A DNA stretch of 64,000 nt. It comes from Bacillota bacterium (GTDB taxonomy: Bacteria; Bacillota; Sulfobacillia; JAUYEG01). Below, one piece after another: positions 15,099 through 62,223 of this stretch (position 1 is its first letter; the number at the start of each line of letters is the position of its first letter). Position numbers and translations under genes: made by a program. The stretch covers positions 62,738 through 126,737 of the forward strand of contig JAUYEG010000081.1 in assembly GCA_030691505.1 (NCBI GenBank), in the 5' to 3' direction. Under the pieces are notes generated by a model, which made no database searches, was not told where the DNA came from, and saw nothing but the letters and a program-made list of their open reading frames with translations.

Positions 15099-15109
15099 GT
15101 CCCTTTTCC

Positions 15110-15520
15110 CAGGATTCTCACGTCCTTTACCGGCGGTCCTTTCGCTCTTGCGGGCAGCCCTTTTCATCAGGCGAGAATCTCGGGCGGGTAGTTCACTCCA
15201 CATGAGCATGTGCCTGTCGGTGCGCTCACGTGCTGAAAACTAGCGACCGCCGTTCTCATCCAGTGAAAACGTACTGACGGCGATACTCGCCAGACGAGAA
15301 CCATACGGCAGAGGTTCTCACGTGATGAAAACCGGTGGGGTGGATTTCCATCTGGCGAGAAGGCTAAGGCGGTCGTACTCGCCAGTTGAAAACCCCTCGG
15401 GATGGGTTCTCATCTGATGAGAACCCTGGGTACCATTTCCGCCACGTGAGAACTCGGAGATAGCTCCTCTCGCCACGTGAACACAGATCAACCAAGATTC
15501 TCGCACGGTGAAAACCTGCT
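15110..15520. repeat. array of about 9 copies of a ~21-bp imperfect palindrome (consensus about GGTTCTCAYSTGATGARAACC) in both orientations
   Basis: Copies seen directly: 15114 gattctcacgtcc; 15170 (rc) gcgagaatc; 15227 tcacgtgctgaaaac; 15252 gttctcatccagtgaaaac; 15313 ggttctcacgtgatgaaaacc; 15376 ctcgccagttgaaaacc; 15406 ggttctcatctgatgagaaccc; 15443 cacgtgagaactc; 15497 gattctcgcacggtgaaaacc. Local GC is lower than the flanks. Confidence 0.7.
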
Positions 15521-15604
15521 CCCCCTCGGAGACCGGAGCCCGGGCAATACACTCCGGTCCACCGCATGAGGACTGCAGGACGCGATCGAAGCACGCACGC
15601 TCCT

Positions 15605-16417: not shown

Positions 16418-16525
16418 GAATGGGAAAATCTGACATGCCAGTTTCGGGCACGAGAAGACCCCGCCGAGCTCATCTGCCCGACGGGGTCTGCGTGGTCGGT
16501 CAAGAGGATTGTTGGTTGGGGCTCC

Positions 16526-18325
16526 CTACCTCCGCCGCAGCACCTTCCCCGCCCTGGTGCCGAGGTGTTTGCCGTCCCGCACTACCTGCTTGCCGTTGAC
16601 AAAGACATGATGCAGCCCTGCCGGATGCCGGCGCGGCTCGATGTAGTCCCCTAACGCCGCGTACCTGGCCGGGTCCCATACGGCCAGATCGGCAAACGCC
16701 CCGGGCTCGACGCGTCCGCGGCCCTTGAGCCCGAGCCACTCCGCCGGGAAGCCTGTCAGCTTGTGCACAGCCGCCTCGAGGGGCTGCGGCGCAAAACGCC
16801 CCAAGTACGTGGCCACCGCGCTGTAGGTGTTGGGGTGAGGCAAGAAGTATGGCGGATGCTCGCCCCGCCAGTTGCAGTCAAACGCGAACGTGTCGCTGCC
16901 CATCATCGCCCGCGGGTGGGCGTAAAAGGCCTTCACCCCGGCCGCCGACATCCCGCCCGTAAACCGGACCACCGCCATGGGATCCTCGGCGACCAGGTCA
17001 AACAGCACGTCAAGAGCGTCCTGCGCCCCTGCGCCCGCCCCTGCGCCCGCCCCTGCGCCTCCGCCTCCGCCCCGCTCCACCGCGATGTCGGCCACGGTCC
17101 GGCCGTTCCAGCGCTCGTCAGCAGCCTGCAGAAACCTGATCCGCTGCGCCCACGCGGGGTCGGCCTTGGGCTGGAATGAATACCACTTCCCCGCCTCCAG
17201 CGTTGCGCGCAGCTCCGCGCGGAAGTCGCGCATCTTGAGGGCCCGGGCCAGACCCTCCAGCGATCCCAGTTCCCTGACCCACGGGGCCAGAGGGGTGACC
17301 AGGCGGTTGGCCAAAAGGACGCCGCCGTCCACGTTGGGTATGACGTCGAACGCCGCGTCGACGCCGTCCGCGATCGCCCTATCGATTACCTCCAGCGTGG
17401 CCTCGGCCGCAGCCTGTTCCATCGCCTCGGTTGCCGGCGGGTAGGTTGCGTACCCTGACTGGATGTGCGCGACCAGGACCTTGATCCCGCTACGCCGGCT
17501 GATCTCCATTCCTTCCTCGATGCCCGCGAGCTTGTTCTGCGGGCCGTTCCGCTTGGCGTCGCCGCGCCTGATGCCGGTCCGGCGCCAGTGAATCGCGTGC
17601 AGGCCGCGGTAGGCCTGCACGACCGTGGTCATTTCGACCAGCTCGGCGGTTTCGGCGTGGGCGCCCGGCTGGTAGTCGAGACCGCTGGAGAAACCGGCCG
17701 CGCCCTCCTCCATCGCCCCGCGGATCAGGTCTCCCATGCGGGCAAGCTCGCCGGCGCTGGGCGCGCGGGCGTGGTCGTCGCCCATGACCTGGGCCCGGAC
17801 CGTGTTGTGGCCGACGAGGGGCACCAGGTTGAGCGAGATCCCAGAGCGCTCGACGCGGTCCAGCCATTCGCCGAAACCGTGCCAATCGATGTCCAGGCCG
17901 ATCTTCTCGCGCGCCGCCGCGCGGACCCGCTCAAGTGGGTGAATGAGCGGTTCATGGTATTTGTAGGGCTCGATCTGGGGCCAGAAGTTCCACTCCCAGA
18001 ACGAGAACAGGTAGCGGTCCACGAGGGGCGCGGGCGAAAAACCGCAGTGACCCGTGAGCACGGTGGTCGTGCCCTGCAGCAGGAAGCTCGGCGCCTCGGG
18101 GTAGGAGAGGATCGTGCCCTCGGCATGGTTATGTACGTCGATAAAGCCGGGGCTCACGACAGAGCCGGCCGGGCAGGCCAGGCGCTTGCCGGCCACTGCC
18201 GCCGACAGGTCGCCCACGGCCGCGATTCGCTCACCCTTGACCCCGACATCAGCCGCAAAGCGCGGCCGTCCGGTGCCGTCGATAACCGTACCGCCGGCAA
18301 GCACAACATCAAAAGACTCCGCCAC
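16526..18325 (-). CDS. N-acyl-D-amino-acid deacylase (D-aminoacylase) family amidohydrolase
   Basis: The N-terminus FDVVLAGGTVIDGTG...VSPGFIDVHNHAEG (metal-binding HxH) and overall length are typical of the D-aminoacylase family. It contains a Gly/Ala-rich insert. Confidence 0.75.
   Translation of the reverse strand: MAESFDVVLAGGTVIDGTGRPRFAADVGVKGERIAAVGDLSAAVAGKRLACPAGSVVSPGFIDVHNHAEGTILSYPEAPSFLLQGTTTVLTGHCGFSPAPLVDRYLFSFWEWNFWPQIEPYKYHEPLIHPLERVRAAAREKIGLDIDWHGFGEWLDRVERSGISLNLVPLVGHNTVRAQVMGDDHARAPSAGELARMGDLIRGAMEEGAAGFSSGLDYQPGAHAETAELVEMTTVVQAYRGLHAIHWRRTGIRRGDAKRNGPQNKLAGIEEGMEISRRSGIKVLVAHIQSGYATYPPATEAMEQAAAEATLEVIDRAIADGVDAAFDVIPNVDGGVLLANRLVTPLAPWVRELGSLEGLARALKMRDFRAELRATLEAGKWYSFQPKADPAWAQRIRFLQAADERWNGRTVADIAVERGGGGGAGAGAGAGAGAQDALDVLFDLVAEDPMAVVRFTGGMSAAGVKAFYAHPRAMMGSDTFAFDCNWRGEHPPYFLPHPNTYSAVATYLGRFAPQPLEAAVHKLTGFPAEWLGLKGRGRVEPGAFADLAVWDPARYAALGDYIEPRRHPAGLHHVFVNGKQVVRDGKHLGTRAGKVLRRR
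17030..17085. repeat. in-frame tandem 12-nt GC-rich repeat (about 3.5 units of cctgcgcccgcc) inside the D-aminoacylase CDS
   Basis: gcgcccctgcgcccgcccctgcgcccgcccctgcgcctccgcctccgcc encodes GGGGGAGAGAGAGAGA on the minus strand. Confidence 0.7.
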
Positions 18326-19187: not shown

Positions 19188-19265
19188 GGTGGATGTAGCT
19201 CAATTGGTTAGAGCGTCGGACTGTGGCTCCGAAGGCTGGGGGTTCGAGACCCCTCATTCACCCCA
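19188..19265 (+). tRNA. tRNA-His (anticodon GTG)
   Basis: Cloverleaf with an extra 5-prime G-1 paired to C73, D-arm GCTCAATTGGTTAGAGC, anticodon loop CTGTGGC, T-arm GGGGGTTCGAGACCCCT, and CCA encoded. Confidence 0.85.
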
Positions 19266-19371
19266 GATAACCAGGGCCTCCCCCAAAGGGAGGCCTTTCG
19301 CGCGCACCTTAGGGTATAATGATGACTGTCATTCCGGCGCATCGCCTGATGACGCAAGTCTGCCGTTTCGC

Positions 19372-19447
19372 TGGGGCGTCGCCAAGCGGTAAGGCGCCGG
19401 ACTTTGGATCCGGTATTTCGTAGGTTCGAATCCTACCGCCCCAGCCA
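19372..19447 (+). tRNA. tRNA-Gln (anticodon TTG)
   Basis: Acceptor TGGGGCG/CGCCCCA with a U1:A72 pair, anticodon stem-loop CCGGA-CTTTGGA-TCCGG, T-arm GTAGGTTCGAATCCTAC, and CCA encoded. Confidence 0.85.
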
Positions 19448-19565
19448 AAACACCCCGGCGGCGCGCCCCGGCACGCACCGCGGCGCGGGCTTTTCGCTGC
19501 TCGGACGGCATGGTAAACTACAGTAGCTATCGCCGGGACGCGACAATCCGGGGGTAACGTCTTGT

Positions 19566-19641
19566 GGGCCATTAGCTCAGCTGGCAGAGCACCCGCCTTT
19601 TAAGCGGGGTGTCGAAGGTTCGAATCCTTCATGGCCTACCA
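19566..19641 (+). tRNA. tRNA-Lys (anticodon TTT)
   Basis: GGGCCATTAGCTCAGCTGGCAGAGC D-arm, anticodon stem-loop CCCGC-CTTTTAA-GCGGG, T-arm GAAGGTTCGAATCCTTC, acceptor ATGGCCT, and CCA encoded. Confidence 0.85.
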
Positions 19642-19686
19642 GTTTTTGTTCGAGGCGGCTTGATCCCACTCGAAGCGGCAGTTGAG

Positions 19687-19773
19687 GCGGGCGTAGCCGA
19701 ATTGGCATAGGCGCTGGACTTAGGATCCAGTGGGGTCACCCCCGTGGGGGTTCAACTCCCCCCGCCCGCACCA
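19687..19773 (+). tRNA. tRNA-Leu (anticodon TAG), long variable arm
   Basis: GCGGGCG acceptor, anticodon stem-loop CTGGA-CTTAGGA-TCCAG, long variable arm TGGGGTCACCCCCGT, T-arm GGGGGTTCAACTCCCCC, and CCA encoded. Confidence 0.85.
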
Positions 19774-42519: not shown

Positions 42520-43563
42520 ATGACTGTCGCGAGGGGCCGCGCGGGCGCGCGGCTCCGCGTTTTCCTGACCCTTGCCGTGGTGCTGCTGGTCGGTGGGGCC
42601 GTGGCCGCGCGCCTCGTCCAGGCGCGGCGGCAGGGGACCTACCACGAACGCAGTGGCCTGGCCATGGGCACCTTCGTGACCCTGCGAGCGGCGGGGCCCC
42701 GGGCTCCGGCCGCGCTTGAGGCCGCGATGGCGGAGATCGACCGGCTTGACGCGTTGTTTGACTACGGCAGGCCGCAAAGCGACGTGGGCAGGCTAAACGC
42801 GGCGGCGGGCGCCGGGCCGGTGACCGTGCAGCCGGATACCGTTGCCGTCCTTGTGCGGGCCCTTCACTACGCTCAGGCTTCGGACGGCGCCTTTGACCCG
42901 ACCATCGCCCCGCTCGTGGACCTGTGGGGCTTCCGTCCCGAGGGCCCGCAGGCCGTGCCCGAGGAAACCGCGATCCGCGATATGCTTTCGCTCGTCGACT
43001 ACCGCAGGCTGCGCGTCGATGCCGGCGCGGGCACGGCCGAACTGCTTGACCCCGGTACGCGCGTGGATCTCGGCGGCATAGCCAAAGGGTTCGCGGTGGA
43101 CCGTGCGGCAGCCGTGTTGCGCGAGGCGGGCGTCGAGTCCGCGATTATCGACATCGGCGGCAACATCTACTGCCTCGGGCTTAAGGACAGGACGAATCTG
43201 TGGCGCGTGGGGCTCCAGCATCCGCGGCGGACGGACGCGCAGTTCGGCGTGCTCCGGATCAGCGACCTGGGCGTGGCCACATCTGGGGACTACCAGCGGT
43301 TCTTTGAGGCCGGCGGGAGGCGGTACCACCACGTGCTCGACCCCCGGACGGGGCGTCCGGCGTCAGGCCTTCTGGCTGCATCCGTCGCGGCCCCCTCGGC
43401 GATGGACGCCGACGCCGCATCGACCGCGGCCTTCGTGCTCGGACTGGAAGCCGGGCAGCGATTTCTGCGCCAGCTCGGGCTGGAGGGCGTGTTTTACGCC
43501 GAGGACGGGCAGGTAGTGGTGACCGGGCGACTGCAGCCGGTTTTTGAGGCCGGGCCGCAATGA
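42520..43563 (+). CDS. apbE: FAD:protein FMN transferase ApbE
   Basis: GLAMGTFVTL, DLGGIAKGFAVDRAA, and the ApbE fold. It sits directly after rnf, as is common. Confidence 0.85.
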   Translation: MTVARGRAGARLRVFLTLAVVLLVGGAVAARLVQARRQGTYHERSGLAMGTFVTLRAAGPRAPAALEAAMAEIDRLDALFDYGRPQSDVGRLNAAAGAGPVTVQPDTVAVLVRALHYAQASDGAFDPTIAPLVDLWGFRPEGPQAVPEETAIRDMLSLVDYRRLRVDAGAGTAELLDPGTRVDLGGIAKGFAVDRAAAVLREAGVESAIIDIGGNIYCLGLKDRTNLWRVGLQHPRRTDAQFGVLRISDLGVATSGDYQRFFEAGGRRYHHVLDPRTGRPASGLLAASVAAPSAMDADAASTAAFVLGLEAGQRFLRQLGLEGVFYAEDGQVVVTGRLQPVFEAGPQ

Positions 43564-44120
43564 CTCCGGCCAAGCCGGAACAGACCGCGCGGGCGCGCCG
43601 CCTGACGCAGTTCAGTCTGCTGGTCGCCACCGCTGTGGTGCTTCACGTCGTCGAAAGCATGTTCCCGCCGCCGCTGCCCGTGCCGGGAGCCAGGCTTGGA
43701 TTGGCGAACATTGTCTCGCTCGTGTGTCTCGACGCCTTCGGGGCGCGGGCGGCGTTTCTGCTGGCGGGCATGCGTACGGTGCTTGGCGGGCTTCTGGGCG
43801 GCGGCCTGCTTGGTTTCGGTTTCCTCCTCAGCTTTGGAGCGGCGCTGGCCAGCGTCGCCGGCATGGCCCTGCTCCGCTCTGTCGGACGGGAGCGGTTCAG
43901 CATTGTGGGCCTCAGCCTGTTCGGGGCTCTCGTTCACAACGTCACGCAACTGACCCTGGCGGCGCTCATCGTCCGGCATGCGGGCGTATTCGCCTATCTG
44001 CCGTACATGCTGATGGGGTCACTCCCGACCGGCGCTCTCACGGGGGTCGCTGCGACGTATGTCCTGCGGGCGCGAAATGCCGCTTTCGCGATGTGGCTTG
44101 GGGCCGCACAGGAAAGATAG
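43560..44120 (+). CDS. Gx transporter family membrane protein (HepS/GerCA-like)
   Basis: 186-aa polytopic ORF with LHVVESMFPPPLPVPGARLGLANIV. This family is commonly found with ApbE/Rnf. Confidence 0.6.
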   Translation: MTPAKPEQTARARRLTQFSLLVATAVVLHVVESMFPPPLPVPGARLGLANIVSLVCLDAFGARAAFLLAGMRTVLGGLLGGGLLGFGFLLSFGAALASVAGMALLRSVGRERFSIVGLSLFGALVHNVTQLTLAALIVRHAGVFAYLPYMLMGSLPTGALTGVAATYVLRARNAAFAMWLGAAQER

Positions 44121-51377: not shown

Positions 51378-51989
51378 CTACTCCCCCTGGGCAGGGCCGA
51401 GCAGCAGCGGCTGCAGTTGTCTGCCCGCAAGCGCGGCCTCCATCGCCGGCAGCACGAGCGACCAATCGGCGCAGACCGAGGTTGGTTTGCCCGTTGGGTT
51501 GTCCTGCCTGAAGGGCACAAGAAACACTCCCCGCGTTGAGAGCAAGGCCCCGAGGTTGCGGGCGTTGAGTCCCAGCGCATCGTTGGTCGAGATCGCCAGC
51601 AAGAGGGGCCGCCCGTTGCGCATATGGCCCTTGGCCGCGAACGACACGGGGTCGTCGGTCAGAGCGCAGGCGATCCTAGCCATCGTGGCCCCGCTGCACG
51701 GCGCCACAACGAACAGGTCAAAGGCCCGCCGCGGCCCCAGCGGTTCGATAGCCACGATCTCGCTCAGAGGCCGGTGACCGGCCGCCTCCGCAAACCGGTC
51801 AAGCCACTGGGCCGCTCTGCCGTAGCGCGTATCGGTTTGGGCCACGGCCCTTGACACCACCGGACGCACTGTCGCCCCCGCGTCGACGGTCCGGCGAATC
51901 AATGCGACGACGATTTCGAACGATTCGTAAACGCCGGTAAGCCCCCAACCAACCGCCGCATCGCAAAGCTCTAACGGCCTCTTTTCCAT
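51378..51989 (-). CDS. dpaB: dipicolinate synthase subunit B (flavoprotein family)
   Basis: MEKRPLELCDAAVGWGLTG...EPLGP...VAPCSGATMARIA...LLAISTNDALGLNARNLGALL...VPFRQDNP...QLQPLL aligns along its length with B. subtilis SpoVFB. The ORF opens at 52145; ATG 51989 is preferred. No dpaA is adjacent. Confidence 0.75.
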   Translation of the reverse strand: MEKRPLELCDAAVGWGLTGVYESFEIVVALIRRTVDAGATVRPVVSRAVAQTDTRYGRAAQWLDRFAEAAGHRPLSEIVAIEPLGPRRAFDLFVVAPCSGATMARIACALTDDPVSFAAKGHMRNGRPLLLAISTNDALGLNARNLGALLSTRGVFLVPFRQDNPTGKPTSVCADWSLVLPAMEAALAGRQLQPLLLGPAQGE

Positions 51990-52196
51990 CACATTGTTCA
52001 CCTCGGCTCTAGGCTGGTCACTCCACTGTGCTTTAATGGCAAGTTGGCGCTGTCTTTTGGTTTGCGAATGCAGGGATAAAACGACCCCAACCAGAATTAG
52101 TGATACTGCGGAATCTCGACCAACGCAACTGGTATCGGTGTACAAGCGTCAGGAGCGTTGTCTGAGACCGTCATCTTAGCAAGGAGGTGAAAAGGA

Positions 52197-52973
52197 GTGA
52201 GTGTTATCAAGAGCGGCATGGTGGCCCCTCTGGTTTTCGAGCTCGCGCTTTGTCTTGCGATCGCGGTGCTCATCGCGCGTGCGCGCAAGGGCCAGAAGCT
52301 TCCCACCATCCGCAAGGTAGCAGGGCTGGACGCTCTGGACGAGGCCATCGGCCGCGCAACCGAGATGGGCGCCACGGTGCACTACTCGCCGGGTATCGGG
52401 GACATCGCCAACCCCCAAACCCTAGCATCCTTCGCGATAATGGGTTATGTCGCGAAGACCTGCGCGAAGTACGACACCCGCCTTATCCAGACCAACCGCA
52501 ACAACGTTGTGTACTCGGTGGCCGAGGAGGTTATCAAACAGGCGTACGCGGATGCAGGCAAGTCTGACGCCTTCAATGCCGACGACGTGCGTTTCCTCTC
52601 CGAGGACCAGTTCGGGTACGCCAGCGCCTGCGTCGGCATCATGCACCGCGAAAAGGTCCGGGCCAACATTCTCATCGGCGCGTTCTGGGCCGAGTCCCTG
52701 ATCTTCGCGGAGGTCGGCGCCCAGATCGGATCGATCCAGATCGCCGGCACGGCCAACACGCACCAGATCCCGTTCTTCATCGCCGCCTGCGATTATGCGC
52801 TGCTGGGCGAGGAGATCTACGCGGCCAGCGCATACCTGACCCGCGAGCCGGTGCTCGTCGGCTGCCTCATCGCGCAGGACTGGGGCAAGATGGTCGGCGT
52901 CGCATTGGTCATCGTTGGCGCGGTCATGGCCACCATGAAGAACAACTCCCTTAAGGACCTGCTCCTTAAGTAG
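52197..52973 (+). CDS. uncharacterised bitopic membrane protein, cluster A gene 1 (paralog of 59268-60047)
   Basis: 258 aa with N- and C-terminal TM helices flanking a soluble domain. A strictly conserved block, QIAGTANTHQIPFFIAACDYALLGEEIYAASAYL, is shared with the paralog. Strong RBS AAGGAGGTG. Confidence 0.8.
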   Translation: MSVIKSGMVAPLVFELALCLAIAVLIARARKGQKLPTIRKVAGLDALDEAIGRATEMGATVHYSPGIGDIANPQTLASFAIMGYVAKTCAKYDTRLIQTNRNNVVYSVAEEVIKQAYADAGKSDAFNADDVRFLSEDQFGYASACVGIMHREKVRANILIGAFWAESLIFAEVGAQIGSIQIAGTANTHQIPFFIAACDYALLGEEIYAASAYLTREPVLVGCLIAQDWGKMVGVALVIVGAVMATMKNNSLKDLLLK

Positions 52974-53042
52974 GTGCCGGCGGGGTGAGGCCTTCTTTGT
53001 GGGCACAAACGGATAACGAGGTCAACTGAAAAGGAGGTGTAG

Positions 53043-53675
53043 ATGGTGCGTAAGGAACTTCCGCTGGCGATCACCTTCATCACCGGGGGCATCGTGATCC
53101 TCGCCAACTTCCTGGCCCCGGCCTGGTTTGTCCAGACCAACAAGGACATAACGGTCTGGTACCAGATCGTCACCGCGCTGTTCTGCGGGTTGGGCGTAGT
53201 CAACCTCTGCCGGATTCACGGCAAGAAGGTCTCCCAAAAGCGTGAGGGCTGGCCCTTCAGCGTCGTGATGCTGGTTTCCATGTTCGGCTTCATGCTAATC
53301 GCGCTTTACGTCGGCCAGCAGCATCAGCTTTACAAGAACCTGTACAACAACACCATCGTCCCGCTCAACGCGACGATGTACTCCATCCTGGTCTTCTACA
53401 TCGCGTCCGCGGCGTATCGGGCGTTCCGGGTCCGCTCCGCCGAGGCGACGATCCTGCTGGTTACCGCCGCGATCGTCATGCTTGGCAAGGCCCCGATCGG
53501 CGAGGCCGTGCTAGGCAGTTGGGTGGCCAGCTGGACCACCTGGATCTTCGACGTTCCTAACACCGCCGGTATGCGCGGCATCCAGCTTGGCGCGACGCTG
53601 GGCGGTATTGCGATGGCCCTTCGTGTTTTGATCGGCATCGAGCGGGCTCACTTTGGTGGGACCGGTGGCGAGTAA
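53043..53675 (+). CDS. uncharacterised polytopic membrane protein, cluster A gene 2 (paralog of 60062-60703)
   Basis: 210 aa, 5-6 TM. Conserved SAAYRAFRVR and a C-terminal GIERAHFGGTGGE are shared with the paralog. RBS AAAGGAGGTG. Confidence 0.8.
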   Translation: MVRKELPLAITFITGGIVILANFLAPAWFVQTNKDITVWYQIVTALFCGLGVVNLCRIHGKKVSQKREGWPFSVVMLVSMFGFMLIALYVGQQHQLYKNLYNNTIVPLNATMYSILVFYIASAAYRAFRVRSAEATILLVTAAIVMLGKAPIGEAVLGSWVASWTTWIFDVPNTAGMRGIQLGATLGGIAMALRVLIGIERAHFGGTGGE

Positions 53676-53697
53676 TAACCGGAAGGAGGTGTGACAG

Positions 53698-54507
53698 GTG
53701 GCAAATATCGATCGCAGGATTATCTACGTGATCATGATGCTTGCGGTCATCTACGCGTTCATCAAGCCGATGGGCTTGCCGATCACGGTCAGCCAGCATA
53801 CCAAGACGGCCTACAACGCGATTGACGCTCTGCCGGCGGGATCCATCCTTGTCCTGGGCATGGACTTCAGCGCCGGCGGTATTCCCGAGCTCGAGCCGGC
53901 AGGCAAAGCGATCTTCTATCAGTGTATGAAAAACAACGTCAGGGTCGTCTTCATGGGTATGTGGGTCATGGCCGGCGACATGGCCGAGCGCATTCTGACC
54001 GAGATGGAACCGCTCTTCCCCGATAAGAAGTACGGCGTCGACTACATCAACATCGGTTACAAGGCGGGAGGCGCCCCGATGTTGGAGAAAGCCGTCGACG
54101 ACATCGTCCTGGCTGCAGTGGGTATTGATCACCGGGGCAACGCCCTGCCCGGCAATATGGCCATCATGCAGGACTTCAAGAGCCTCAAGGATGTCAGCTT
54201 CTGGGTATGCCTGTCCACCGGCACCCCTGGAACGGGTGACTGGATCAGGATTGTCGGTGACCCGCTCAAGATTAAGGGCACCACGGACATCGTCTCGGTA
54301 TCCATCCCGGAGCAGATGCCATATGTTCAGTCCGGCCAGCTCACCGGGATCATCCAGGGCATGCGCGGCTCTGCCGAGTACGAACTGCTTATCAAGCGTC
54401 CAGGCCGCGCCGTCGCGGGCATGGATGCCCAGTCCCTGACCCACGTCGTGATCTTGGCCTTCATCTTGCTGGGTAACCTTGGTTACCTGGTTCGCAAGAA
54501 GTCTTAG
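53698..54507 (+). CDS. uncharacterised bitopic membrane protein, cluster A gene 3 (paralog of 60700-61536)
   Basis: 269 aa with N-terminal TM, a 200-aa soluble domain and C-terminal TM. Conserved ALPAGS, MRGSAEYELLIKRPG and GMDAQSLTH are shared with the paralog. RBS GGAAGGAGGTG. Confidence 0.8.
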   Translation: MANIDRRIIYVIMMLAVIYAFIKPMGLPITVSQHTKTAYNAIDALPAGSILVLGMDFSAGGIPELEPAGKAIFYQCMKNNVRVVFMGMWVMAGDMAERILTEMEPLFPDKKYGVDYINIGYKAGGAPMLEKAVDDIVLAAVGIDHRGNALPGNMAIMQDFKSLKDVSFWVCLSTGTPGTGDWIRIVGDPLKIKGTTDIVSVSIPEQMPYVQSGQLTGIIQGMRGSAEYELLIKRPGRAVAGMDAQSLTHVVILAFILLGNLGYLVRKKS

Positions 54508-54527
54508 GGAGGAGGTGAGAGATTGAC

Positions 54528-55127
54528 ATGGTAACAACCAACTGGTGGCTCTGGCTAGCGGCTTTCTTCACGGTGTCCATCTATACGGTGGCGTTCGCCG
54601 ACAATAACCTGTTCAGGTTCGTCGAGAGCATCTTCGTCGGCACGTCGGCGGGCTACATGGTCACCGCCAACTGGTTCAACTACATCAAGCCGCAGCTCCT
54701 TAACGTGCAAAAAGGCCAGTATGTCCTGCTGATTCCGTTCCTGATCGGCTTGCTGGTCTACACCCGTTACGTCCGTTCGATCGCCTGGGTCAGCCGGATC
54801 TCTCTTGCCTTTACCCTGGGGTACGGGTCAGGGTTCATCCTGTCCAAGAACTTCAGGCCTGACTTCCTGACGCAGGTTATTGCAACTTTCAGGACGCTCG
54901 ACACGTTTAACAACTGGCTCCTGGTATTTGGCGTGATCACCTCGCTGACCTACTTCCTGTTCACCGTGGAGCAAAAAGGGGTCGTGGGGTACGCCTCCAA
55001 GGCGGGCCGTTGGGTCATGATGATCGCCCTCGGCGCGGCCTTCGGCAGCACCGTAATGGCCCGTGTGTCCCTGTTCCTCGGACGGGTGCAGTTCCTGCTT
55101 ACGGAGTGGATGTTCCTGGTTAAATGA
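54528..55127 (+). CDS. uncharacterised polytopic membrane protein, cluster A gene 4 (paralog of 61533-62129)
   Basis: 199 aa, 5-6 TM. Conserved AGRWVMMIALGAAFGSTVMARVSLFLGRVQFL is shared with the paralog. RBS GGAGGAGGTG. Confidence 0.8.
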   Translation: MVTTNWWLWLAAFFTVSIYTVAFADNNLFRFVESIFVGTSAGYMVTANWFNYIKPQLLNVQKGQYVLLIPFLIGLLVYTRYVRSIAWVSRISLAFTLGYGSGFILSKNFRPDFLTQVIATFRTLDTFNNWLLVFGVITSLTYFLFTVEQKGVVGYASKAGRWVMMIALGAAFGSTVMARVSLFLGRVQFLLTEWMFLVK

Positions 55128-55153
55128 CGTCCTGATTCTCGGGAAGTCGCGTA

Positions 55154-55190
55154 CCGCCCCGGCCCGGATGGCCGGGGCGGTTTCGTTGCC
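55154..55190 (+). terminator. rho-independent terminator after cluster A
   Basis: CCGCCCCGGCC-cggat-GGCCGGGGCGG followed by TTTCGTT. Confidence 0.6.
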
Positions 55191-55295
55191 GGCCACCGGT
55201 GGCGGCCAGCCCCCCGGGCAGCGGTCTCCCACCCTCATAACCTTCCAGGTTGGACAATATACTTCACCAATCCATGCGGTCAGGGGGGGCGGGTA

Positions 55296-56051
55296 ATGGC
55301 TGCCTACCGTCGGCGGGGCGGCGTCCGCGGCCCCATCCACACCCGGCTGGCTCCACGCGGCGAAATGGAATGGCTCAAGCGCAACGCGGCGACCGTCGCA
55401 AAGCAGGCGGCAGTGGCGCTTTTTATCTTCGGCCTGGTCGTCTACGTCCTGGGCGTCGGTCCCCCCTATTGGCCGCTCGTCGAGCGGGCGGCAAGATACG
55501 CCGCGTCCGCCGACTACACCTACGCCGAGGTTGTCGACGGCATTCTCGGCCTCAAGGACATGTCGCTGCCGCGCAGCCTGCCTGAAGCAAAAGCCCTTAT
55601 TCTCCGCTGGTGGACCGGACGCGACCCGCTGGAGGCCGGCGGGATTGAGTGGAGCCTGCTTGCGCCCGCCAGCGGTGCCATTTCGTCGCCGTTTGGCTGG
55701 CGGACCCACCCAGTCCACAAAGACCTCCGGTACCACACCGGTGTGGACATCGCCGCGCCGGAGGGCTCCGACGTCCTTGCCGCCCGAGAGGGCCAGGTTC
55801 TGGCCGTGGGGGACGATGAGCTGTGGGGTATTAACGTGTCGATCCAGCATGCGGGGGACCAGGTCACCTTCTACGCGCATCTGGCGCAGGCGCTGGTCGC
55901 CAAAGACCAGCAAGTCGTACGGGGGCAGGTTATCGGAAAGGTCGGCCGCACCGGATCGGTTGTGGACGCCCACCTGCATTTCGAACTGCGGCAGAAAGGA
56001 GAGCCCATAGACCCGGAGCCTCTGATCCGCGCAGCAGGAGGAGGCACATGA
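55296..56051 (+). CDS. membrane-anchored M23/LytM-domain protein (SpoIVFA-like by position)
   Basis: TM VALFIFGLVVYVLGV, then a LytM domain HTGVDIAAPEGSDVLAAREGQVLAV...GRTGSVVDAHLHFELR. It immediately precedes the site-2 protease gene. Confidence 0.7.
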   Translation: MAAYRRRGGVRGPIHTRLAPRGEMEWLKRNAATVAKQAAVALFIFGLVVYVLGVGPPYWPLVERAARYAASADYTYAEVVDGILGLKDMSLPRSLPEAKALILRWWTGRDPLEAGGIEWSLLAPASGAISSPFGWRTHPVHKDLRYHTGVDIAAPEGSDVLAAREGQVLAVGDDELWGINVSIQHAGDQVTFYAHLAQALVAKDQQVVRGQVIGKVGRTGSVVDAHLHFELRQKGEPIDPEPLIRAAGGGT

Positions 56052-56073
56052 TCGGGCTGGGCGTGACTTTCCG

Positions 56074-56946
56074 TTGGGTCCCGGGCCGTATCGCATCAGA
56101 ATCTCGCCGCTTTACATCGCGCTGCTCGCCCTGTGGGTGGCGGGCGGGTACCTGACCGAAGCTGCCCTTGCTCTTATCAGCCTGGCGTGCCATGAACTGG
56201 CTCACCTGTACGTCCTTGCGGGTTTCGATATTCCGGTCGAGGCAGTGGAGTTGCACCCTTTTGGAGCCGTCATCGTGTACGCAGGGCCGGCCGAGGGACT
56301 GGCTGCAACCGACGGGCTTGTGGCGGCGGCAGGTCCGCTGCAGAGCTTCCTGCTGGCGGCGGTGGCCACTTTTCTCGAGCCGCTCGGATGGTTTGCGCCC
56401 GACAAGCTGCAACTCCTGATCCAGCTCAACCTGCTGTTGGCGTGCTTCAACCTGATTCCGGTGTGGCCGCTGGACGGAGGCCGGGTGGTCCGGGCCTGGC
56501 TGGCGCCAAGGCTTGGCGACGCGGCAGCGGGGCGAGCGCTGGCCCGCGCCGGCCGGCTGGTCGGGCTGCTGACCGCCGTGTCAGGAGTTGTCGCGTCCTA
56601 CACTCTTGCCCGTCCGGCCTGGGTGCCGGTGCTGATCGGCCTATTCCTGTGGCGCGCCGCTGGCCGGGGAACGGGCGCGGGGCGCGAAAGCGTGCTGAGG
56701 ACCATGACCAAGGCGCGCAGGGCTCTGCCGCACGGGGTCGGTGCCATAGCGCACCTTGTCGCCCGCCACGACACGACCATGCGCCAGCTGCTGCGGCGGC
56801 TGCGGGGCGATCGCTATCATCTTGTGACGGTGATCGACGCTGGCGGTCACCAGCTCGGTACGCTGACGGAGGACGACCTGCACCGGGCCATGATGGATCT
56901 GGGGATCGAGGGTACAGTTCTGGAGGCTATGAGACGAAGGCAGTAG
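56074..56946 (+). CDS. spoIVFB: site-2 protease family M50 intramembrane metalloprotease with C-terminal CBS domain (SpoIVFB-like)
   Basis: HExxH within a TM helix (LACHELAHLYV), NLIPVWPLDGGRV (LDG motif), and a C-terminal CBS domain HLVTVIDAGGHQLGTLTEDDL. TTG start. Confidence 0.75.
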   Translation: MGPGPYRIRISPLYIALLALWVAGGYLTEAALALISLACHELAHLYVLAGFDIPVEAVELHPFGAVIVYAGPAEGLAATDGLVAAAGPLQSFLLAAVATFLEPLGWFAPDKLQLLIQLNLLLACFNLIPVWPLDGGRVVRAWLAPRLGDAAAGRALARAGRLVGLLTAVSGVVASYTLARPAWVPVLIGLFLWRAAGRGTGAGRESVLRTMTKARRALPHGVGAIAHLVARHDTTMRQLLRRLRGDRYHLVTVIDAGGHQLGTLTEDDLHRAMMDLGIEGTVLEAMRRRQ

Positions 56947-57091
56947 GGCCGGTCAGGGCGGTCATGCCAGGGCCATATTGAACGGCGAAGGACACCGCCA
57001 GTTGACACTTTGCGGGCGAGTGCGCAGGAGATAGACAGGCAATGCGCGAAACACCTCGTGTTCCTGGGGAGCTGTAACAAACACTTGACAG

Positions 57092-58063
57092 TTGAGGGTG
57101 GTCGCGATTGGGATGCCCAGCGTTGCCTCAGGTCGGCGCGTCGAGGAGTATGTCCTCCTGAGGATGGCGGAGAATGCTTACGAGTATGGGGCGCCCCTGC
57201 CAAGCTGCCGGCAACTCGCTAAAAGGCTCGGGGTCAGCCACAATACCGTCTACATGGTGTATCAGCGTCTGGCCCGACGAGGGGTTCTGCGCGCGGTACG
57301 CGGGAGCGGATTTCGCCTTTCGAGCAGCGCGATAGCACGTGATGACCTGCGGCAGGTTCTGAAAGAGCGGTTTCTCGGCGCGGTCCATGCGGCCAAGTCC
57401 GCGGGCTACTCACAGTCAGAGGTCAGGGGTGCTCTCGAGGACATCGTACGCGAGGCGTTTGAGCAGACGGCTCCGGTCATCGCCTTCGTCGAGTGCTCGC
57501 GTGAGAGTTCCTCCCGCCTCAGCGCCAACCTCCACGCCCAACTGGGCACCCGGGTCCAGACAGCCGTCCTCACGTCCGACTGCGACCAGCTTAGACGGGC
57601 GGTGGCTGACTGTGACCTGATCTGCACCACGCTCTATCACCTGCGTGAGGTTGAGGACGCCCTCCAGATGCCCGGCAAAGTGGTGGGGCTGAGGCATGTG
57701 CCGGAGACCGACAGCCTCCTGCAGATCGCGCGCATCCGCAGCGGGGCAAGGGTCCTGGTCATCGGCTCCAACGAGCGCACTCTGGAGCAATTGGTGCAGA
57801 CCGTTGAATCACACCACGGCCGCCCCGATGCGGCGGTCCTGCCGGGTCAATTGGTTCCCCGACTACTTGAGGAAAACCAGGTTGTGGTCACGGTCCACGA
57901 AGCCTTCAAGCGATGCCCCTCTCTGGCTGGGCTCAACCGGAGCCAGGTCATCATCGTGACCTATGCCATAGACAGCCAGTCGGTGGCCTATCTCCACAAG
58001 CGCGTTGGAGAGCTACGTAGCCACACCCTGGGCGATGGTGAAAGGAGCACTGGGGAGCGTTGA
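57092..58063 (+). CDS. GntR-family HTH transcriptional regulator with uncharacterised C-terminal domain
   Basis: N-terminal wHTH LPSCRQLAKRLGVSHNTVYMVYQRLARRGVLRAVRGSGFRL. The start is uncertain and may lie further in. Confidence 0.6.
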   Translation: MRVVAIGMPSVASGRRVEEYVLLRMAENAYEYGAPLPSCRQLAKRLGVSHNTVYMVYQRLARRGVLRAVRGSGFRLSSSAIARDDLRQVLKERFLGAVHAAKSAGYSQSEVRGALEDIVREAFEQTAPVIAFVECSRESSSRLSANLHAQLGTRVQTAVLTSDCDQLRRAVADCDLICTTLYHLREVEDALQMPGKVVGLRHVPETDSLLQIARIRSGARVLVIGSNERTLEQLVQTVESHHGRPDAAVLPGQLVPRLLEENQVVVTVHEAFKRCPSLAGLNRSQVIIVTYAIDSQSVAYLHKRVGELRSHTLGDGERSTGER

Positions 58064-59166
58064 ACAGGGACCAGCTGGAGCGTTCGCTTGCTCAGAGCGA
58101 TCTCGACGCCGTCGTGTGTGTGTCGCCTGAGAACGTATTCTACCTCTCAGACGTGGCCATCCAGACGCAGAGGACGATACCCGACCGCCTGGCCCTCGTG
58201 GTTTGGCCCAGAGGAGACCAACCGACATTCATCGTCTGTTCCTGGGAAGAGGCGCAGGCCAAGGCGGAGTCGTGGATTGCGGACATCAGGTCCTATGTTG
58301 AGTTCCAGGTCTCACCCATGCAACTCCTGGCGGACGTTCTCCGGGAGCGCGGCCTTGCCGCCGGGCGCCTGGGCCTTGATATGCGCGGGCTTGCCTCTCT
58401 GGATTACCTTGAACTGCGTGAACTGGTGCCCAGCGCGAGAATTGTGGATGGAACGTCCGTCATGGCAAGGGCGCGAATGATCAAGACCGCGAAGGAAGTC
58501 GAACGGCTGCGAGAGGCCGCCGAGGTCACGGATCGCGTCATTCGCGATGTGTTTTCGCCAATTGCCGAGGGCATGACGGAGTGCGAGGTCGCGACGCGGC
58601 TCAAGACACACCTCCTTTGCGCCGGGGCGGATTCGATCGCGTTCACCATTTTCGCGGGCGGCGCAAACTCGTCCATCACCCATCCGGCCGCCAGCGATTA
58701 CCGGCTGCGGCGGGGTGATCTGATCCGGACTGACTTTGGCGGGGCGTTCGGGGAATACCTATCGGACCTTGCCCGAACCGCTGTGGTTGGGGCGCCGCAG
58801 CAGGAGCATGTGGCCATGTACGCCACGCTTTGGGAGATCCATCAGGCTCTGATCGCCCAGATGACCCCCGGCACAAGGGCGTCGGACCTGTTCCACAGCT
58901 GCAGGCGCCTCTATGAGGCTAGCGGGATCCCTTTTAGCCGCGCACATATCGGACACGGCATCGGACTCAACGTACACGAACACCCTGTTCTGAGTCCCCG
59001 TACAGACGAGATCCTCCAACCAAACATGGTTATCTGCCTCGAGATCAGTCATACGACGCCCGGCGTGTCCCGGTACCATCTGGAGGACACGGTGGTTGTT
59101 GGGCAGGCGCACCCGGCGATTTTGTCCCGAACGGCGGATTGGCGACACCTGCTCATCACAGGATAG
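58060..59166 (+). CDS. M24 family metallopeptidase (Xaa-Pro peptidase / creatinase-like)
   Basis: Creatinase-like N-domain plus the pita-bread catalytic domain, with metal ligands in IRTDFGGAFGEY, HGIGLNVHEHP and LEISHTT. Confidence 0.8.
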   Translation: MNRDQLERSLAQSDLDAVVCVSPENVFYLSDVAIQTQRTIPDRLALVVWPRGDQPTFIVCSWEEAQAKAESWIADIRSYVEFQVSPMQLLADVLRERGLAAGRLGLDMRGLASLDYLELRELVPSARIVDGTSVMARARMIKTAKEVERLREAAEVTDRVIRDVFSPIAEGMTECEVATRLKTHLLCAGADSIAFTIFAGGANSSITHPAASDYRLRRGDLIRTDFGGAFGEYLSDLARTAVVGAPQQEHVAMYATLWEIHQALIAQMTPGTRASDLFHSCRRLYEASGIPFSRAHIGHGIGLNVHEHPVLSPRTDEILQPNMVICLEISHTTPGVSRYHLEDTVVVGQAHPAILSRTADWRHLLITG

Positions 59167-59267
59167 CCCACTGCCGAATGCAGCTGGGGGGTGAGGCCAA
59201 GGAGAGCTGGATGAGTCGCTGTGATAGGGCGGAGTGACGGATTCGCGCACAGAAGGGAGGTTGGGCA

Positions 59268-60047
59268 GTGTCTCTCTATGCCGGACGGATGACCCACCTG
59301 CTGTTCTTCGCGGCATTCGTGCTGCTGACGTGGGCCGGCACCAGGCGTTTCCAACGCACCGGCAACGTGCCCATTCGCCGGGTTACCGGCCTTGATGCTT
59401 TTGAGGAAGCCATCGGCCGCGCAACGGAGCTCGGACGCCCGGTACACTTCTCCTTGGGGCGGGGACTGTTTGACGCCGAGCATGGCGCCCAGACTTTCGC
59501 CGGCTTTTCGATGCTCAAGCACACCGCACTGATGACGGCCCGCTACGGATGCCGCCTGATCGTGACCAACCAGAGCCCGCAGGCTCACCCGGTGACGGAG
59601 GAGATCGTGCGGCAGGCCTACGTTGAAGCCGGGCGGCCCGATGATTACGTCGCCGACGATGTGCGGTACCTCTCCGAACAGCAGACTGCTTACGTCTCCG
59701 GGGTCATTGGGGTCATGGAGCGAGAACGCATAGCGGCCAACGTAATGGTTGGGTATTTCTACGCCGAGTCCATGATGCTCGCGGAAACCGCCAACAAGGT
59801 CGGCGCGATTCAGATAGCGGGCACCGCCAACACGCATCAGATACCGTTCTTTGTGGCCGCGTGCGATTACACGCTGATCGGCGAGGAGATCTTCGCCGCC
59901 AGCGCCTACCTCGAGCGGCAGCCCGTGCAGATCGGGTGCCTGGTTGCCCAGGACTACGGCAAGTACGTGGCCGCAGGAATCATCCTGGTGGGCTCCATCC
60001 TGGCGACCGCCGGCTACCCGTTCCTCAGCCAATGGATCAAGAAGTAA
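59268..60047 (+). CDS. uncharacterised bitopic membrane protein, cluster B gene 1 (paralog of 52197-52973)
   Basis: 259 aa with the same architecture as cluster A gene 1. Conserved QIAGTANTHQIPFFVAACDYTLIGEEIFAASAYL. Confidence 0.8.
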   Translation: MSLYAGRMTHLLFFAAFVLLTWAGTRRFQRTGNVPIRRVTGLDAFEEAIGRATELGRPVHFSLGRGLFDAEHGAQTFAGFSMLKHTALMTARYGCRLIVTNQSPQAHPVTEEIVRQAYVEAGRPDDYVADDVRYLSEQQTAYVSGVIGVMERERIAANVMVGYFYAESMMLAETANKVGAIQIAGTANTHQIPFFVAACDYTLIGEEIFAASAYLERQPVQIGCLVAQDYGKYVAAGIILVGSILATAGYPFLSQWIKK

Positions 60048-60061
60048 AGGGGGGATAGCAG

Positions 60062-60703
60062 GTGAAATTCACAGGGGTACCGATTCTGGTGACGATGGTC
60101 GTGGGCGGCGTGGTGCTGCTCGACTTCTTTGTCAAGCAGAGCAACCTGATACTGCTGTCCCGCGAGTTCATGAACTGGGGCGTGATCATCTCCGCCTTCG
60201 CCACCGGCCTCGGCGCGGCCAACCTGTTGCGTATCCACGCCAAAAGGACTCAGTTGCGCCGCACGGACTGGTGGTACTCGGGAATCCTGCTCTGCGTACT
60301 TGTAGGGTACACCGCGCTCGGCGTGCTCAAGCATTCCTCGTCCAGCCAGTACCAGTTTGTTTTCAACCACATGTTCCAACCGCTCTCGGCGACGGTGTTC
60401 TCGTTTAACGCGTTCTTCATGACGTCCGCCGCGTATCGGGCCTTCAGGGTACGGACGGTACACGCCACCGTGCTCCTGGTATCGGCCCTGCTGATGATGC
60501 TCGGCCGGGTGGGGATCGGCGAGGTCCTGTACAAGGACATGCCCGGCATAGCCAGCTGGATCTCACGCGTTCCGACGACCGCCGGGTTTCGCGGCATCAC
60601 CATCGGCGCGGCGCTGGGCGCCATCGGGCTCAGCCTGCGGGTCCTGACGGGCATTGAGCGCTCCCAGTTCGGCGGCACCGGCGGGGGAGGTGGCGCGGCG
60701 TGA
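60062..60703 (+). CDS. uncharacterised polytopic membrane protein, cluster B gene 2
   Basis: 213 aa with SAAYRAFRVR and a C-terminal GIERSQFGGTGGGGGAA. Paralog of 53043-53675. Confidence 0.8.
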   Translation: MKFTGVPILVTMVVGGVVLLDFFVKQSNLILLSREFMNWGVIISAFATGLGAANLLRIHAKRTQLRRTDWWYSGILLCVLVGYTALGVLKHSSSSQYQFVFNHMFQPLSATVFSFNAFFMTSAAYRAFRVRTVHATVLLVSALLMMLGRVGIGEVLYKDMPGIASWISRVPTTAGFRGITIGAALGAIGLSLRVLTGIERSQFGGTGGGGGAA

Positions 60704-61536
60704 ACCTCTGGGAGATCTTCCAGAACATCGACCGTCGAGTCTGGTACGTGCTCCTGCTTGTATCGCTTTTCATCCCCCTGGTAAGACCGCTCGGACTGCC
60801 GCTGTCCATAGGCGGCGAGGCCCGTGACGTTTACAACACCATCGAGGCCCTGCCGGCAGGGTCGGTGGTCATCGTCTCACCGAGCTACAGCCCCGGCACC
60901 GACGCCGAGATGTGGCCGCAGCACGCCGCGGTCATGCAGCACCTGATGCGCAAGGGCTGCAAGATCATTCAGGTCTCGCTGGCGCTGGAGTCGGTCATGT
61001 ATGCAGTCAGGGCCATTGAGGCATACGCGCCCAAGTACAATTACAAGATGGGCGTAGACCACGTGATCATGCCCTACAAGGCAGGTCTGGACGTGGTTAT
61101 CGCGTCCATGGGCCGCGACATTCACGCGCTGTACACCGAGGACTACTACGGAACACTAACAAGCCAGCTCCCGCTGATGCAGTCGATCAGCGGCATCCAG
61201 GACATCGCGCTGGTCGTTGACTTCATGCCCGGCAACACGCTCGTCGACTACATCAAGCAGATCGGGTCGGTCTACAACACCCCGATTACCGGCGGGGTGA
61301 CGGGCGTCTGCATCCCGACCATGATGCCGTACGTGATGTCGGGGCAGTGCCGCGGGCTCCTCGGCGGCATGCGCGGCGCCGCGGAGTATGAGCTGCTGAT
61401 CAACTCCCCCGGATCGGCGATCGGCGGCATGGATGCCCAGTCGCTGTCGCACCTGCTGATCATCGTCGCTATCGCCCTGGGCAACATCGGGCTCGTGGCC
61501 GGCCGCGGCCTCAGGAAAGGTGGTGGCGGCAAGTGA
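60700..61536 (+). CDS. uncharacterised bitopic membrane protein, cluster B gene 3
   Basis: 278 aa with ALPAGS, MRGAAEYELLINSPG and GMDAQSLSH. Overlapping start/stop with its neighbours. Paralog of 53698-54507. Confidence 0.8.
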   Translation: MNLWEIFQNIDRRVWYVLLLVSLFIPLVRPLGLPLSIGGEARDVYNTIEALPAGSVVIVSPSYSPGTDAEMWPQHAAVMQHLMRKGCKIIQVSLALESVMYAVRAIEAYAPKYNYKMGVDHVIMPYKAGLDVVIASMGRDIHALYTEDYYGTLTSQLPLMQSISGIQDIALVVDFMPGNTLVDYIKQIGSVYNTPITGGVTGVCIPTMMPYVMSGQCRGLLGGMRGAAEYELLINSPGSAIGGMDAQSLSHLLIIVAIALGNIGLVAGRGLRKGGGGK

Positions 61537-62129
61537 GCACTCAACTCGGCGTGTGGATCGCAGCGCTCTGCACGATCTTCATGTACAGCTACCTGTGGCG
61601 GGACAATCCGCTCTTCAAGCTGGGTGAGCACGTGTTCATTGCCATCGGGGCGGCCCACGCCATCGTCATGGGGTATCAGAACATCGTCGAAATGGCCTGG
61701 AGGCCCATGGTCGGAGGCAAAGCCTACATGGTCCTGCCCCTCGTCATGGGGGCCATACTCTACACCCGGTTCTTCAAGCAGGTATCCATGCTGTCCCGCA
61801 TCCCCATCGCCTTCCTGGTGGGGCTGGCAGCCGCCCTGTCCATCCGCGGCGCGCTTGACGCGAGTTTCATCAAACAGGTTGCCAGCACGATGGTGCCGAT
61901 CAAGAACGCCAATGACCTGATCACTATGCTCGGCGTCGTTACGACGATCTCGTACTTCTTCTTTACGGCGACGGCACGCAGCGGGCCGCTGCGTTTCAGC
62001 GCGGAGGTCGGACGCTGGGTCATGATGGTTGCCTTTGGCGCAGCCTTTGGCAACACGGTGATGGCCCGCATGTCACTGGTCATCGGCCGGCTTCAGTTCC
62101 TGTTCGGCCAGTGGATCAAGATCCTCTGA
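61533..62129 (+). CDS. uncharacterised polytopic membrane protein, cluster B gene 4
   Basis: 198 aa with VGRWVMMVAFGAAFGNTVMARMSLVIGRLQFL. Paralog of 54528-55127. Confidence 0.8.
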   Translation: MSTQLGVWIAALCTIFMYSYLWRDNPLFKLGEHVFIAIGAAHAIVMGYQNIVEMAWRPMVGGKAYMVLPLVMGAILYTRFFKQVSMLSRIPIAFLVGLAAALSIRGALDASFIKQVASTMVPIKNANDLITMLGVVTTISYFFFTATARSGPLRFSAEVGRWVMMVAFGAAFGNTVMARMSLVIGRLQFLFGQWIKIL

Positions 62130-62186
62130 TGCGGCCGGCCGGGCCCTGGAGTCAGGCCGGTGAACTGGGATTGACGGCAAGAGACA

Positions 62187-62223
62187 AGAGGCAGGACGGC
62201 GTGCCGTCCTGCCTCTTATCTTC
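62187..62223. terminator. bidirectional rho-independent terminator between cluster B and the convergent deacetylase gene
   Basis: AGAGGCAGGACGG-cgtg-CCGTCCTGCCTCT followed by TATCTTC. An A-rich tract lies on the other side. Confidence 0.6.

Follow-up and report, generated by a model that had tools for sequence, protein, structure and literature searches.

Type I ATP-binding cassette (ABC) importers such as GlnPQ and OpuA, tripartite ATP-independent periplasmic (TRAP) transporters and tripartite tricarboxylate transporters (TTT) combine two small polytopic subunits with an external alpha/beta receptor-like domain and a conserved cytoplasmic component. In these importers, whose receptor domains are tethered to the membrane or fused, evolution is fastest in the receptor and slowest in the cytoplasmic part, many paralogs occur per genome, extra receptor domains are present in some lineages, and catabolic enzymes and regulators are found as neighbours. 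An arrangement alike in all these respects may be encoded by two clusters of four genes in a stretch of 64,000 nucleotides from a Bacillota metagenome-assembled genome (MAG), the whole of which is referred to here as the window. Cluster A (52197-55127) and cluster B (59268-62129) specify the same four proteins, called Q1 to Q4 below (A1-A4 and B1-B4 for the individual copies), in the same order, and the list of open reading frames (ORFs) places all eight genes on the plus strand, as the initial annotation of the window had described for two paralogous four-gene operons. As judged from sequence, the quartet would be a new binding-domain-dependent uptake system for small nutrients, a reading that is put forward tentatively, with confidence a little short of evenly balanced.

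The likeness to the known importers is one of plan, and the parts differ. Neither an ABC ATPase nor Walker motifs nor a BPD_transp domain were found in the eight window proteins or in 45-65 members of each of the Q2, Q3 and Q4 families, and no match to DctQ/M, TctA/B or a solute-binding protein family connects the quartet to TRAP or TTT. The Q3 domain has just one alpha/beta lobe, unlike the two-lobed, hinged binding proteins, and the cytoplasmic subunit differs from those of ABC, TRAP and TTT systems in being a membrane-anchored Rossmann-like domain. With the Group II energy-coupling factor (ECF) transporters there is only an organisational analogy, namely scattered membrane units with one putative partner module encoded elsewhere (see below); Q1-Q4 have no homology to EcfT, EcfA or the S-components (PF12822), and the partner would be an ATPase of the ASKHA type, not of the ABC type.

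Conservation and family membership of the quartet

Homologs of A1 formed 4,728 clusters at 90% identity in a large protein collection, and a profile search with Q3 returned 4,795 representatives at 50% identity. Scanning one genome per species for the domain of unknown function DUF6754, to which Q1 belongs, identified at least 589 genomes, and 80 loci were retrieved from these. The order 1-2-3-4 was kept in essentially all loci long enough to judge, with median spacers of 13, 12 and 5 bp, and loci with two or three quartets, in tandem or close together, were common; the lack of co-conservation that the initial annotation had named as refuting its proposal was therefore not encountered. The carriers, mostly uncultured, belong to about 16 bacterial groups at phylum level and, among the archaea, to two lineages. 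The labels of the 80 loci include Bacillota (among them a MAG assigned to Symbiobacterium thermophilum), Planctomycetota, Zixibacteria, WOR-3, Fermentibacteria/Aegiribacteria, Cloacimonadota, Poribacteria, Ignavibacteria, Armatimonadota, Latescibacterota, Edwardsbacteria, Coatesbacteria, Stahlbacteria, Vulcanimicrobiota and Rifleibacterium. The archaeal carriers are two MAGs, of Methanomethylicia and Bathyarchaeia, for which a binning error is possible in single cases, and a further quartet was found separately in a MAG of the Chloroflexota (L001).

Aligned end-to-end by BLASTP, the A and B paralogs are 48% identical for gene 1, 40% for gene 2, 34% for gene 3 and 33% for gene 4, with E-values for the pairs from 2e-89 to 1e-44. 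The 40-55% estimated earlier by eye holds for the first two genes and is too high for the other two. The nearest relative of cluster A is the quartet L005 and that of cluster B the quartet L034, and both of these occur in one other MAG. The duplication must consequently predate the split of these organisms, which agrees with the earlier proposal of an ancient duplication with both copies maintained.

Full-length matches to DUF6754 (PF20539) were obtained for A1 (325.8 bits) and B1 (285.4 bits) against a gathering score of 27 bits, and the family was present in 120 of the 120 listed homologs of A1. DUF6754 is catalogued in Pfam as uncharacterised, and the entry covers only subunit 1, without a function. 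For genes 2-4, neither Pfam nor NCBIfam gave a match with the window proteins, and no Pfam family was detected among 45 Q2, 65 Q3 and 48 Q4 diverse family members. Weak matches to TMD0_ABC (3 of 45), Acyl_transf_3 and IF-2B/MtnA were sub-threshold and inconsistent and were set aside. Searches of the PDB sequences with phmmer and with profiles gave nothing meaningful for Q1, Q2, Q4 or N375, a protein of the associated module described below. Since genes 2-4 are unmatched and gene 1 belongs to an uncharacterised family, no subunit can be assigned to a characterised family. The initial annotation, which had recognised no family for any of the four, was thus right for genes 2-4 and has to be amended for gene 1; its statement that the proteins carry no ATPase, helix-turn-helix or known transporter signature agrees with the family scans, and the hidden Markov model match to a characterised system that it had named as refuting was found in none of the Pfam, NCBIfam and PDB searches.

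Comparisons between the positions of the quartet, by BLASTP and by profile-profile alignment with hhalign, gave no likeness of one subunit to another, and an internal duplication (Q1 with Q3, Q2 with Q4) was rejected for want of hhalign support. A literature search on DUF6754, PF13941 and GlmL found nothing relevant, and no paper mentioning DUF6754. Only one subunit is catalogued, as a DUF, and none is homologous to a known system; its partner families, operon, topology, distribution and module association are undescribed in the literature and family libraries searched.

Subunit topology and a candidate uptake function

Hydropathy agrees with the topologies assigned earlier, genes 1 and 3 being bitopic and genes 2 and 4 polytopic with about six hydrophobic segments each. 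For A1, the predicted layout is a short outside N-terminus, a first transmembrane helix (TM1), a cytoplasmic alpha/beta, Rossmann-like domain and a C-terminal transmembrane (TM) helix. Outside Bacillota and Chloroflexota, in diderm phyla, Q1 has some 100-150 additional residues, which comprise a signal peptide and then a domain with a recurrent D-PND-G...W...Y-Y-V-A pattern. This domain scored 24.9 bits against Pfam fn3, a borderline value given the cut-off of 25. Because this signal peptide and FN3-like extension precedes TM1, and residues rich in K/R follow it, the Q1 N-terminus is placed outside and the DUF6754 domain in the cytoplasm. The soluble domain of A1 was modelled as a confident alpha/beta fold (AlphaFold2 pLDDT 86.5), and the invariant residues of Q1, G66, G161, E166, T185 and D199 among them, lie at or just past the C-terminal ends of predicted beta-strands. 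Of the polytopic subunits, A2 has a conserved cytoplasmic loop, SAAYRAFR, and a C-terminal G-ER motif, and A4 a conserved FGAAFG-TVMAR-SL--GR motif.

The opposite orientation is predicted for A3, with both termini inside and an alpha/beta domain (a confident fold, AlphaFold2 pLDDT 92.8) held outside between the N- and C-terminal TM helices. This placement follows from three features of the Q3 family. Its N- and C-termini are K/R-rich. In a Planctomycetota locus (L036:1255-2598), Q2 contains an inserted domain of about 235 aa that resembles Q3 (E 5e-17 against the Q3 profile), in a loop between TM3 and TM4 that is predicted to face outward; a separate Q3 gene is present as well. Other homologs contain large insertions, all at one site in the alpha/beta domain: in P0423 (838 aa), a repeat insertion of about 540 residues that is Ig/CARDB-like by eye (motif only), and in further proteins (P0438, 630 aa; P0505, P0468 and P0479) a tandem second Q3 domain or helical insertions.

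Mean pairwise identity over 50 single-quartet loci was 48% for Q1, 39% for Q2 and Q4, and 34% for Q3, so that the cytoplasmic domain is the most constrained part and the external domain the least. This gradient, Q1 > Q2/Q4 > Q3, is typical of binding-domain-dependent importers. The fixed gene order, the tight or overlapping spacing and the fusion of a Q3-like domain into Q2 suggest that the four proteins form a complex. Each cluster would then give rise to a heterotetramer of an ancient and widespread type in the cytoplasmic membrane, with Q2 and Q4 (about six TM helices each) as the membrane core and with Q1 and Q3 each clamped to it by the TM helices at their two ends. The external, fast-evolving domain of Q3 would recognise the substrate, and the internal, very conserved domain of Q1, probably binding a ligand or a partner, would serve coupling or regulation. 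The proposed job is the uptake of amino acids, peptides and some sugars, paralogs A and B serving different substrates. No ATPase gene lies inside either cluster, and the quartet may for this reason be a secondary transporter or the partner of an ATPase working in trans; the energy could come from an ion gradient or from the GlmL-like ASKHA ATPase/N375 module encoded on another contig.

The uptake reading draws on the two polytopic subunits, the diverging external and conserved internal domains and the fused external domains, and also on the multiple paralogs per genome and on neighbours of catabolic, regulatory and TonB-system type. These neighbours are highly variable and are dominated by enzymes of amino-acid, peptide and sugar catabolism and by regulators, including amidohydrolases, aminotransferases, a beta-eliminating lyase, Asp/Glu racemase, sulfatases and xylose-isomerase-like proteins. 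At one locus (L167), the genes for L-serine dehydratase beta/alpha follow directly downstream of the quartet; M20 peptidases adjoin some quartets, and KDPG aldolase with HPr, or a LevR-like regulator, is near others. In five Fermentibacteria/Aegiribacteria loci (L035, L039, L057, L078, L081, about 13100-18000), the quartet is directly followed by one or two SusC-like TonB-dependent receptors (CarboxypepD_reg, Plug and barrel) and then by ExbB, ExbD and ExbD, so that an apparently complete set for uptake across the outer membrane adjoins the inner-membrane quartet. The initial annotation had offered two functions, of which a novel transport system fits the evidence better than a complex for sporulation or division.

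Several observations weigh against uptake. No subunit resembles any known transporter in the Pfam, NCBIfam and PDB sequence searches, the TonB-receptor linkage is confined to one lineage, and no Rfam riboswitch that might have given a clue to the substrate was detected in the window or in 7 further loci. Many orthologs of the A type lie amid housekeeping genes (ApbE, CNNM/CBS, YchF, ribonucleotide reductase) and outside operons for catabolism. The strongest association of the quartet is with an ATPase module that is also found without it, beside AccA-Era, two-component systems or ExbB, and an envelope or housekeeping machine could be meant. Finally, Q1 is about 50% identical between bacterial and archaeal MAGs, a degree of conservation more like that of an enzyme than of a transporter accessory domain.

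An ion-translocating, nucleotide-dependent enzyme was considered, resembling a transhydrogenase or another redox or energy-converting complex, in which the binding of NAD(P) or a different nucleotide by Q1 would drive ions through Q2 and Q4. This is improbable. A relationship of the quartet to transhydrogenase dIII was rejected at the sequence level, and neither dIII/PntB family membership nor the NADP(H) fingerprint was found. The Ktr/Trk K+ uptake systems and PntAB, which join a membrane core to a Rossmann-like nucleotide-binding domain, show no sequence or profile relationship to the quartet, which differs from them in having one domain outside and in lacking homology to the membrane domains of KtrB/TrkH or PntA/B. 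The quartet families contain neither the ApbE flavinylation motif nor a conserved CxxC. The presence of ApbE near quartets hints at extracytoplasmic flavinylation in the vicinity, but Q1-Q4 have no such motif.

The closest A-type orthologs (L169, L171, L173) share a synteny of housekeeping character. YchF is downstream in all three, an unannotated protein of about 360 aa and ApbE are upstream in L169 and L173, and two CNNM/CBS genes are downstream in L169 and L171.

Association with a GlmL-like ATPase module

The strongest recurrent association of the quartet is with a module made up of a GlmL-like ASKHA protein, N375 and two small membrane proteins, N125 and N161. The GlmL-like protein (about 620 aa) matches PF13941 with an E-value of 7e-125; it falls below the NCBIfam TIGR01319 and equivalog cut-offs for GlmL (150 vs 204 bits), is about 160 aa longer than GlmL and, by these measures, would be a distinct branch of the GlmL/MutL family. 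N375 (about 375 aa) has a barrel-sandwich-hybrid N-terminus and a KOW-like C-terminus, and no Pfam family reached threshold. Among 37 well-flanked loci, the module was located at most 10 kb from the quartet in 15, which represent at least seven phyla; it was usually contiguous and on the same strand, and N161 was often directly upstream of Q1. Scanning the other way, from N375, showed a quartet in 11 of 36 metagenomic loci of at least 12 kb. Homologs of the GlmL-like protein, N375, N125 and N161 are missing from the 64-kb window. A double module is, however, present in the same MAG (prefix Q8P31) on another contig (L166, 2-5669), in the order GlmL-like (partial), N375-like (449 aa), N125-like (139 aa), GlmL-like (625 aa, PF13941), N375 (375 aa) and UDG, with Q8P31_03280 among its products. 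A protein of an NCBI Bacillota MAG with this locus-tag prefix is 100% identical to A3.

This association raises the possibility that the quartet supplies the membrane portion of a larger envelope machine driven by ATP, with the GlmL-like ATPase and N375 as its cytoplasmic part and N125 and N161 as further small membrane proteins. The task of this machine would be export, assembly, the handling of lipids or surface components, or quality control, and not the import of nutrients. The co-occurrence just described favours it, including the double module in the window's own MAG, as do the ExbB, AccA and Era genes that the module adjoins elsewhere, the extracytoplasmic FN3-like and repeat insertions, which would suit contacts with the surface or envelope, and the synteny of quartet, M23 and M50 genes in some Bacillota. 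Most quartets, both of those in the window included, nevertheless have no module nearby, and the module is more widespread (at least 8000 clusters) and often without a quartet. Import accounts better for the varied catabolic surroundings and for the presence of several paralogs in one genome, and a function is known for none of the module proteins. An envelope machine, although the main rival to uptake, was on balance considered rather unlikely.

The two ideas could also be combined, in that the quartet with the GlmL-like ATPase, N375, N125 and N161 might constitute a new primary active, binding-domain-dependent transporter or an envelope translocase. An ATPase of the actin/Hsp70 fold would then take the place of an ABC, P-type or V/F-type motor, and one cytoplasmic module could serve several scattered quartets in trans. 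This version was regarded as distinctly less probable still.

Where N375 occurs without the quartet, two contexts were seen (L097-L109, L119, L125, L129 and L146; L104, L107 and L134-L150). In the first, it is accompanied by an unannotated protein of about 290 aa, possibly AccD, by AccA and often by Era; in the second, by a response regulator and a histidine kinase. On account of these contexts, N375 may have a broader housekeeping role.

Setting of the two clusters in the window and implications

The features of both clusters are collected in the table. The genes of cluster A are preceded by GGAGG-type ribosome-binding sites, in line with the near-consensus sites reported earlier, and those of cluster B by weaker ones; 4-nt overlaps occur at two junctions of cluster B, B2/B3 and B3/B4. 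Each cluster had been said to end in its own terminator. GC-rich hairpins were indeed found at both ends, with T-tracts that are weak at both, and a simple consensus terminator scan called neither.

Features of clusters A and B and of the genes preceding cluster B (coordinates in the window)
Feature	Coordinates	Strand	Basis or remark
A1 (Q1 subunit), 258 aa	52197..52973	+	ORF; PF20539 DUF6754, E 2e-97
A2 (Q2 subunit), 210 aa, ~6 TM	53043..53675	+	ORF, hydropathy
A3 (Q3 subunit), 269 aa	53698..54507	+	ORF, hydropathy
A4 (Q4 subunit), 199 aa, polytopic	54528..55127	+	ORF, hydropathy
GC-rich hairpin, 12-bp stem, then TTCGTT	55153..55181	+	Probable cluster A terminator; read from sequence
GntR-family regulator	57092..58063	+	PF00392 E 1e-11; stop overlaps M24 gene start
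M24 metallopeptidase with Creatinase/Prolidase N-domain	58060..59166	+	PF00557 E 1e-47, PF01321 E 2e-15
B1 (Q1 paralog), 259 aa, DUF6754	59268..60047	+	ORF; E 4e-85
B2 (Q2 paralog), 213 aa	60062..60703	+	ORF, BLASTP vs A2
B3 (Q3 paralog), 278 aa	60700..61536	+	ORF, BLASTP vs A3
B4 (Q4 paralog), 198 aa	61533..62129	+	ORF, BLASTP vs A4
Hairpin, 14-bp stem, between convergent B4 and PIG-L gene	62186..62217	.	Probable bidirectional terminator; read from sequence

Around cluster A, the gene order is Maf, RadC, MreB, MreC, MreD, penicillin-binding protein 2 (PBP2), RodA, a PF02441 flavoprotein on the minus strand and the cluster itself, followed by an M23 peptidase, an M50 peptidase with CBS, GntR, an M24/creatinase-N peptidase, cluster B and a convergent PIG-L deacetylase. 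The M24 gene and B1 share a strand and lie 101 bp apart, with no hairpin noted between them. GntR is probably the regulator of an operon running into cluster B, and cluster B would thereby be expressed together with a peptidase of the prolidase/creatinase type.

The flanking genes are as described in the initial annotation, save that the identity of its 'orphan dpaB' as DpaB was not established: this ORF (51378-52145, minus strand) is a member of the PF02441 flavoprotein family (E 2e-21), which also takes in CoaC/Dfp, UbiX and EpiD, and as listed it has a long N-terminal extension.

The position of cluster A, between mreBCD-mrdA-rodA and M23/M50 genes that resemble SpoIVFA/FB, is where minCD would be expected, and had been taken as a clue to a membrane complex for sporulation or division that replaces or accompanies MinCD/SpoIVF. 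The KGGxGK[ST] motif of the MinD-type Walker A was found nowhere in the 64-kb window, and in three further loci of Bacillota (L022, L040, L067) M23 and M50 genes again come after a quartet, with 1-4 genes in between; both findings would suit such a complex. In each of these three loci, at least one gene between the quartet and M23/M50 is on the opposite strand, so the two are not co-transcribed, and in the window a hairpin closes cluster A. No homolog of Mre, RodA or PBP2 was found near any other quartet examined; the 'minCD position' is for this reason a matter of local, lineage-level synteny and not a functional link, the neighbours elsewhere varying widely. None of the eight window proteins matched a Spo-family model in Pfam or NCBIfam, and Q1-Q4 gave no Pfam match to MinC or MinD, the deviant Walker A ATPase, and no likeness to DivIVA. 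Complexes of the SpoIVF, SpoVA and SpoIIIA types are restricted to endospore formers and recognisable by Spo homology; the quartet, in contrast, is carried by Planctomycetota, Zixibacteria, WOR-3, Fermentibacteria, Poribacteria, Ignavibacteria and Chloroflexota and by the Methanomethylicia and Bathyarchaeia MAGs, none of them known endospore formers. With so many non-sporulating phyla and archaeal MAGs among its carriers, the quartet is not sporulation-specific, and the proposed role in sporulation or division, largely refuted by this phyletic distribution, was judged highly improbable.

The three loci just mentioned belong to Bacillota/Fermentithermobacillaceae, and their quartets lie between pur genes/QueT and the M23-M50 (SpoIVFA/FB-like) pair. 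An N375 homolog is present about 9 kb upstream in L040, L063 and L067, which suggests that an ancestral cluster uniting the module, the quartet and the spoIVF genes has eroded in the Fermentithermobacillaceae lineage.

The G+C content of cluster A is 0.57-0.60 (52000-55000), well below that of its flanks (0.65-0.67), and that of cluster B is 0.615-0.63 (59000-62000); these offsets may reflect the codon content of membrane proteins or differing histories of the two copies. Elsewhere in the window, four tRNA genes (19189-19770, plus strand) are the sole Rfam matches. The ORF at 43560-44120, just upstream of maf-radC-mreB, matches component I of heptaprenyl diphosphate synthase (PF07456, E 1e-42); it also has a weak, S-component-like match to ECF_trnsprt and is unrelated to the clusters.

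For the window, a tempting link to sporulation and the Min system is removed as unsupported. The system, whose mechanism we infer, has as yet no bearing on an open question that is generally recognised. Its conservation extends from Bacillota to Planctomycetota, to candidate phyla of the FCB group and to some archaeal MAGs. Pfam lacks entries for three of the four subunits, which amounts to a sizeable annotation blind spot in uncultured anaerobes. If the quartet is an uptake system, it would represent a transporter architecture unrelated to ABC, TRAP, TTT, ECF and phosphotransferase systems, and the metabolic reconstructions of many MAGs would change with respect to the amino acids, peptides and sugars that these organisms can import. 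If it is coupled to the GlmL-like ATPase module, a new principle of energisation would be added.

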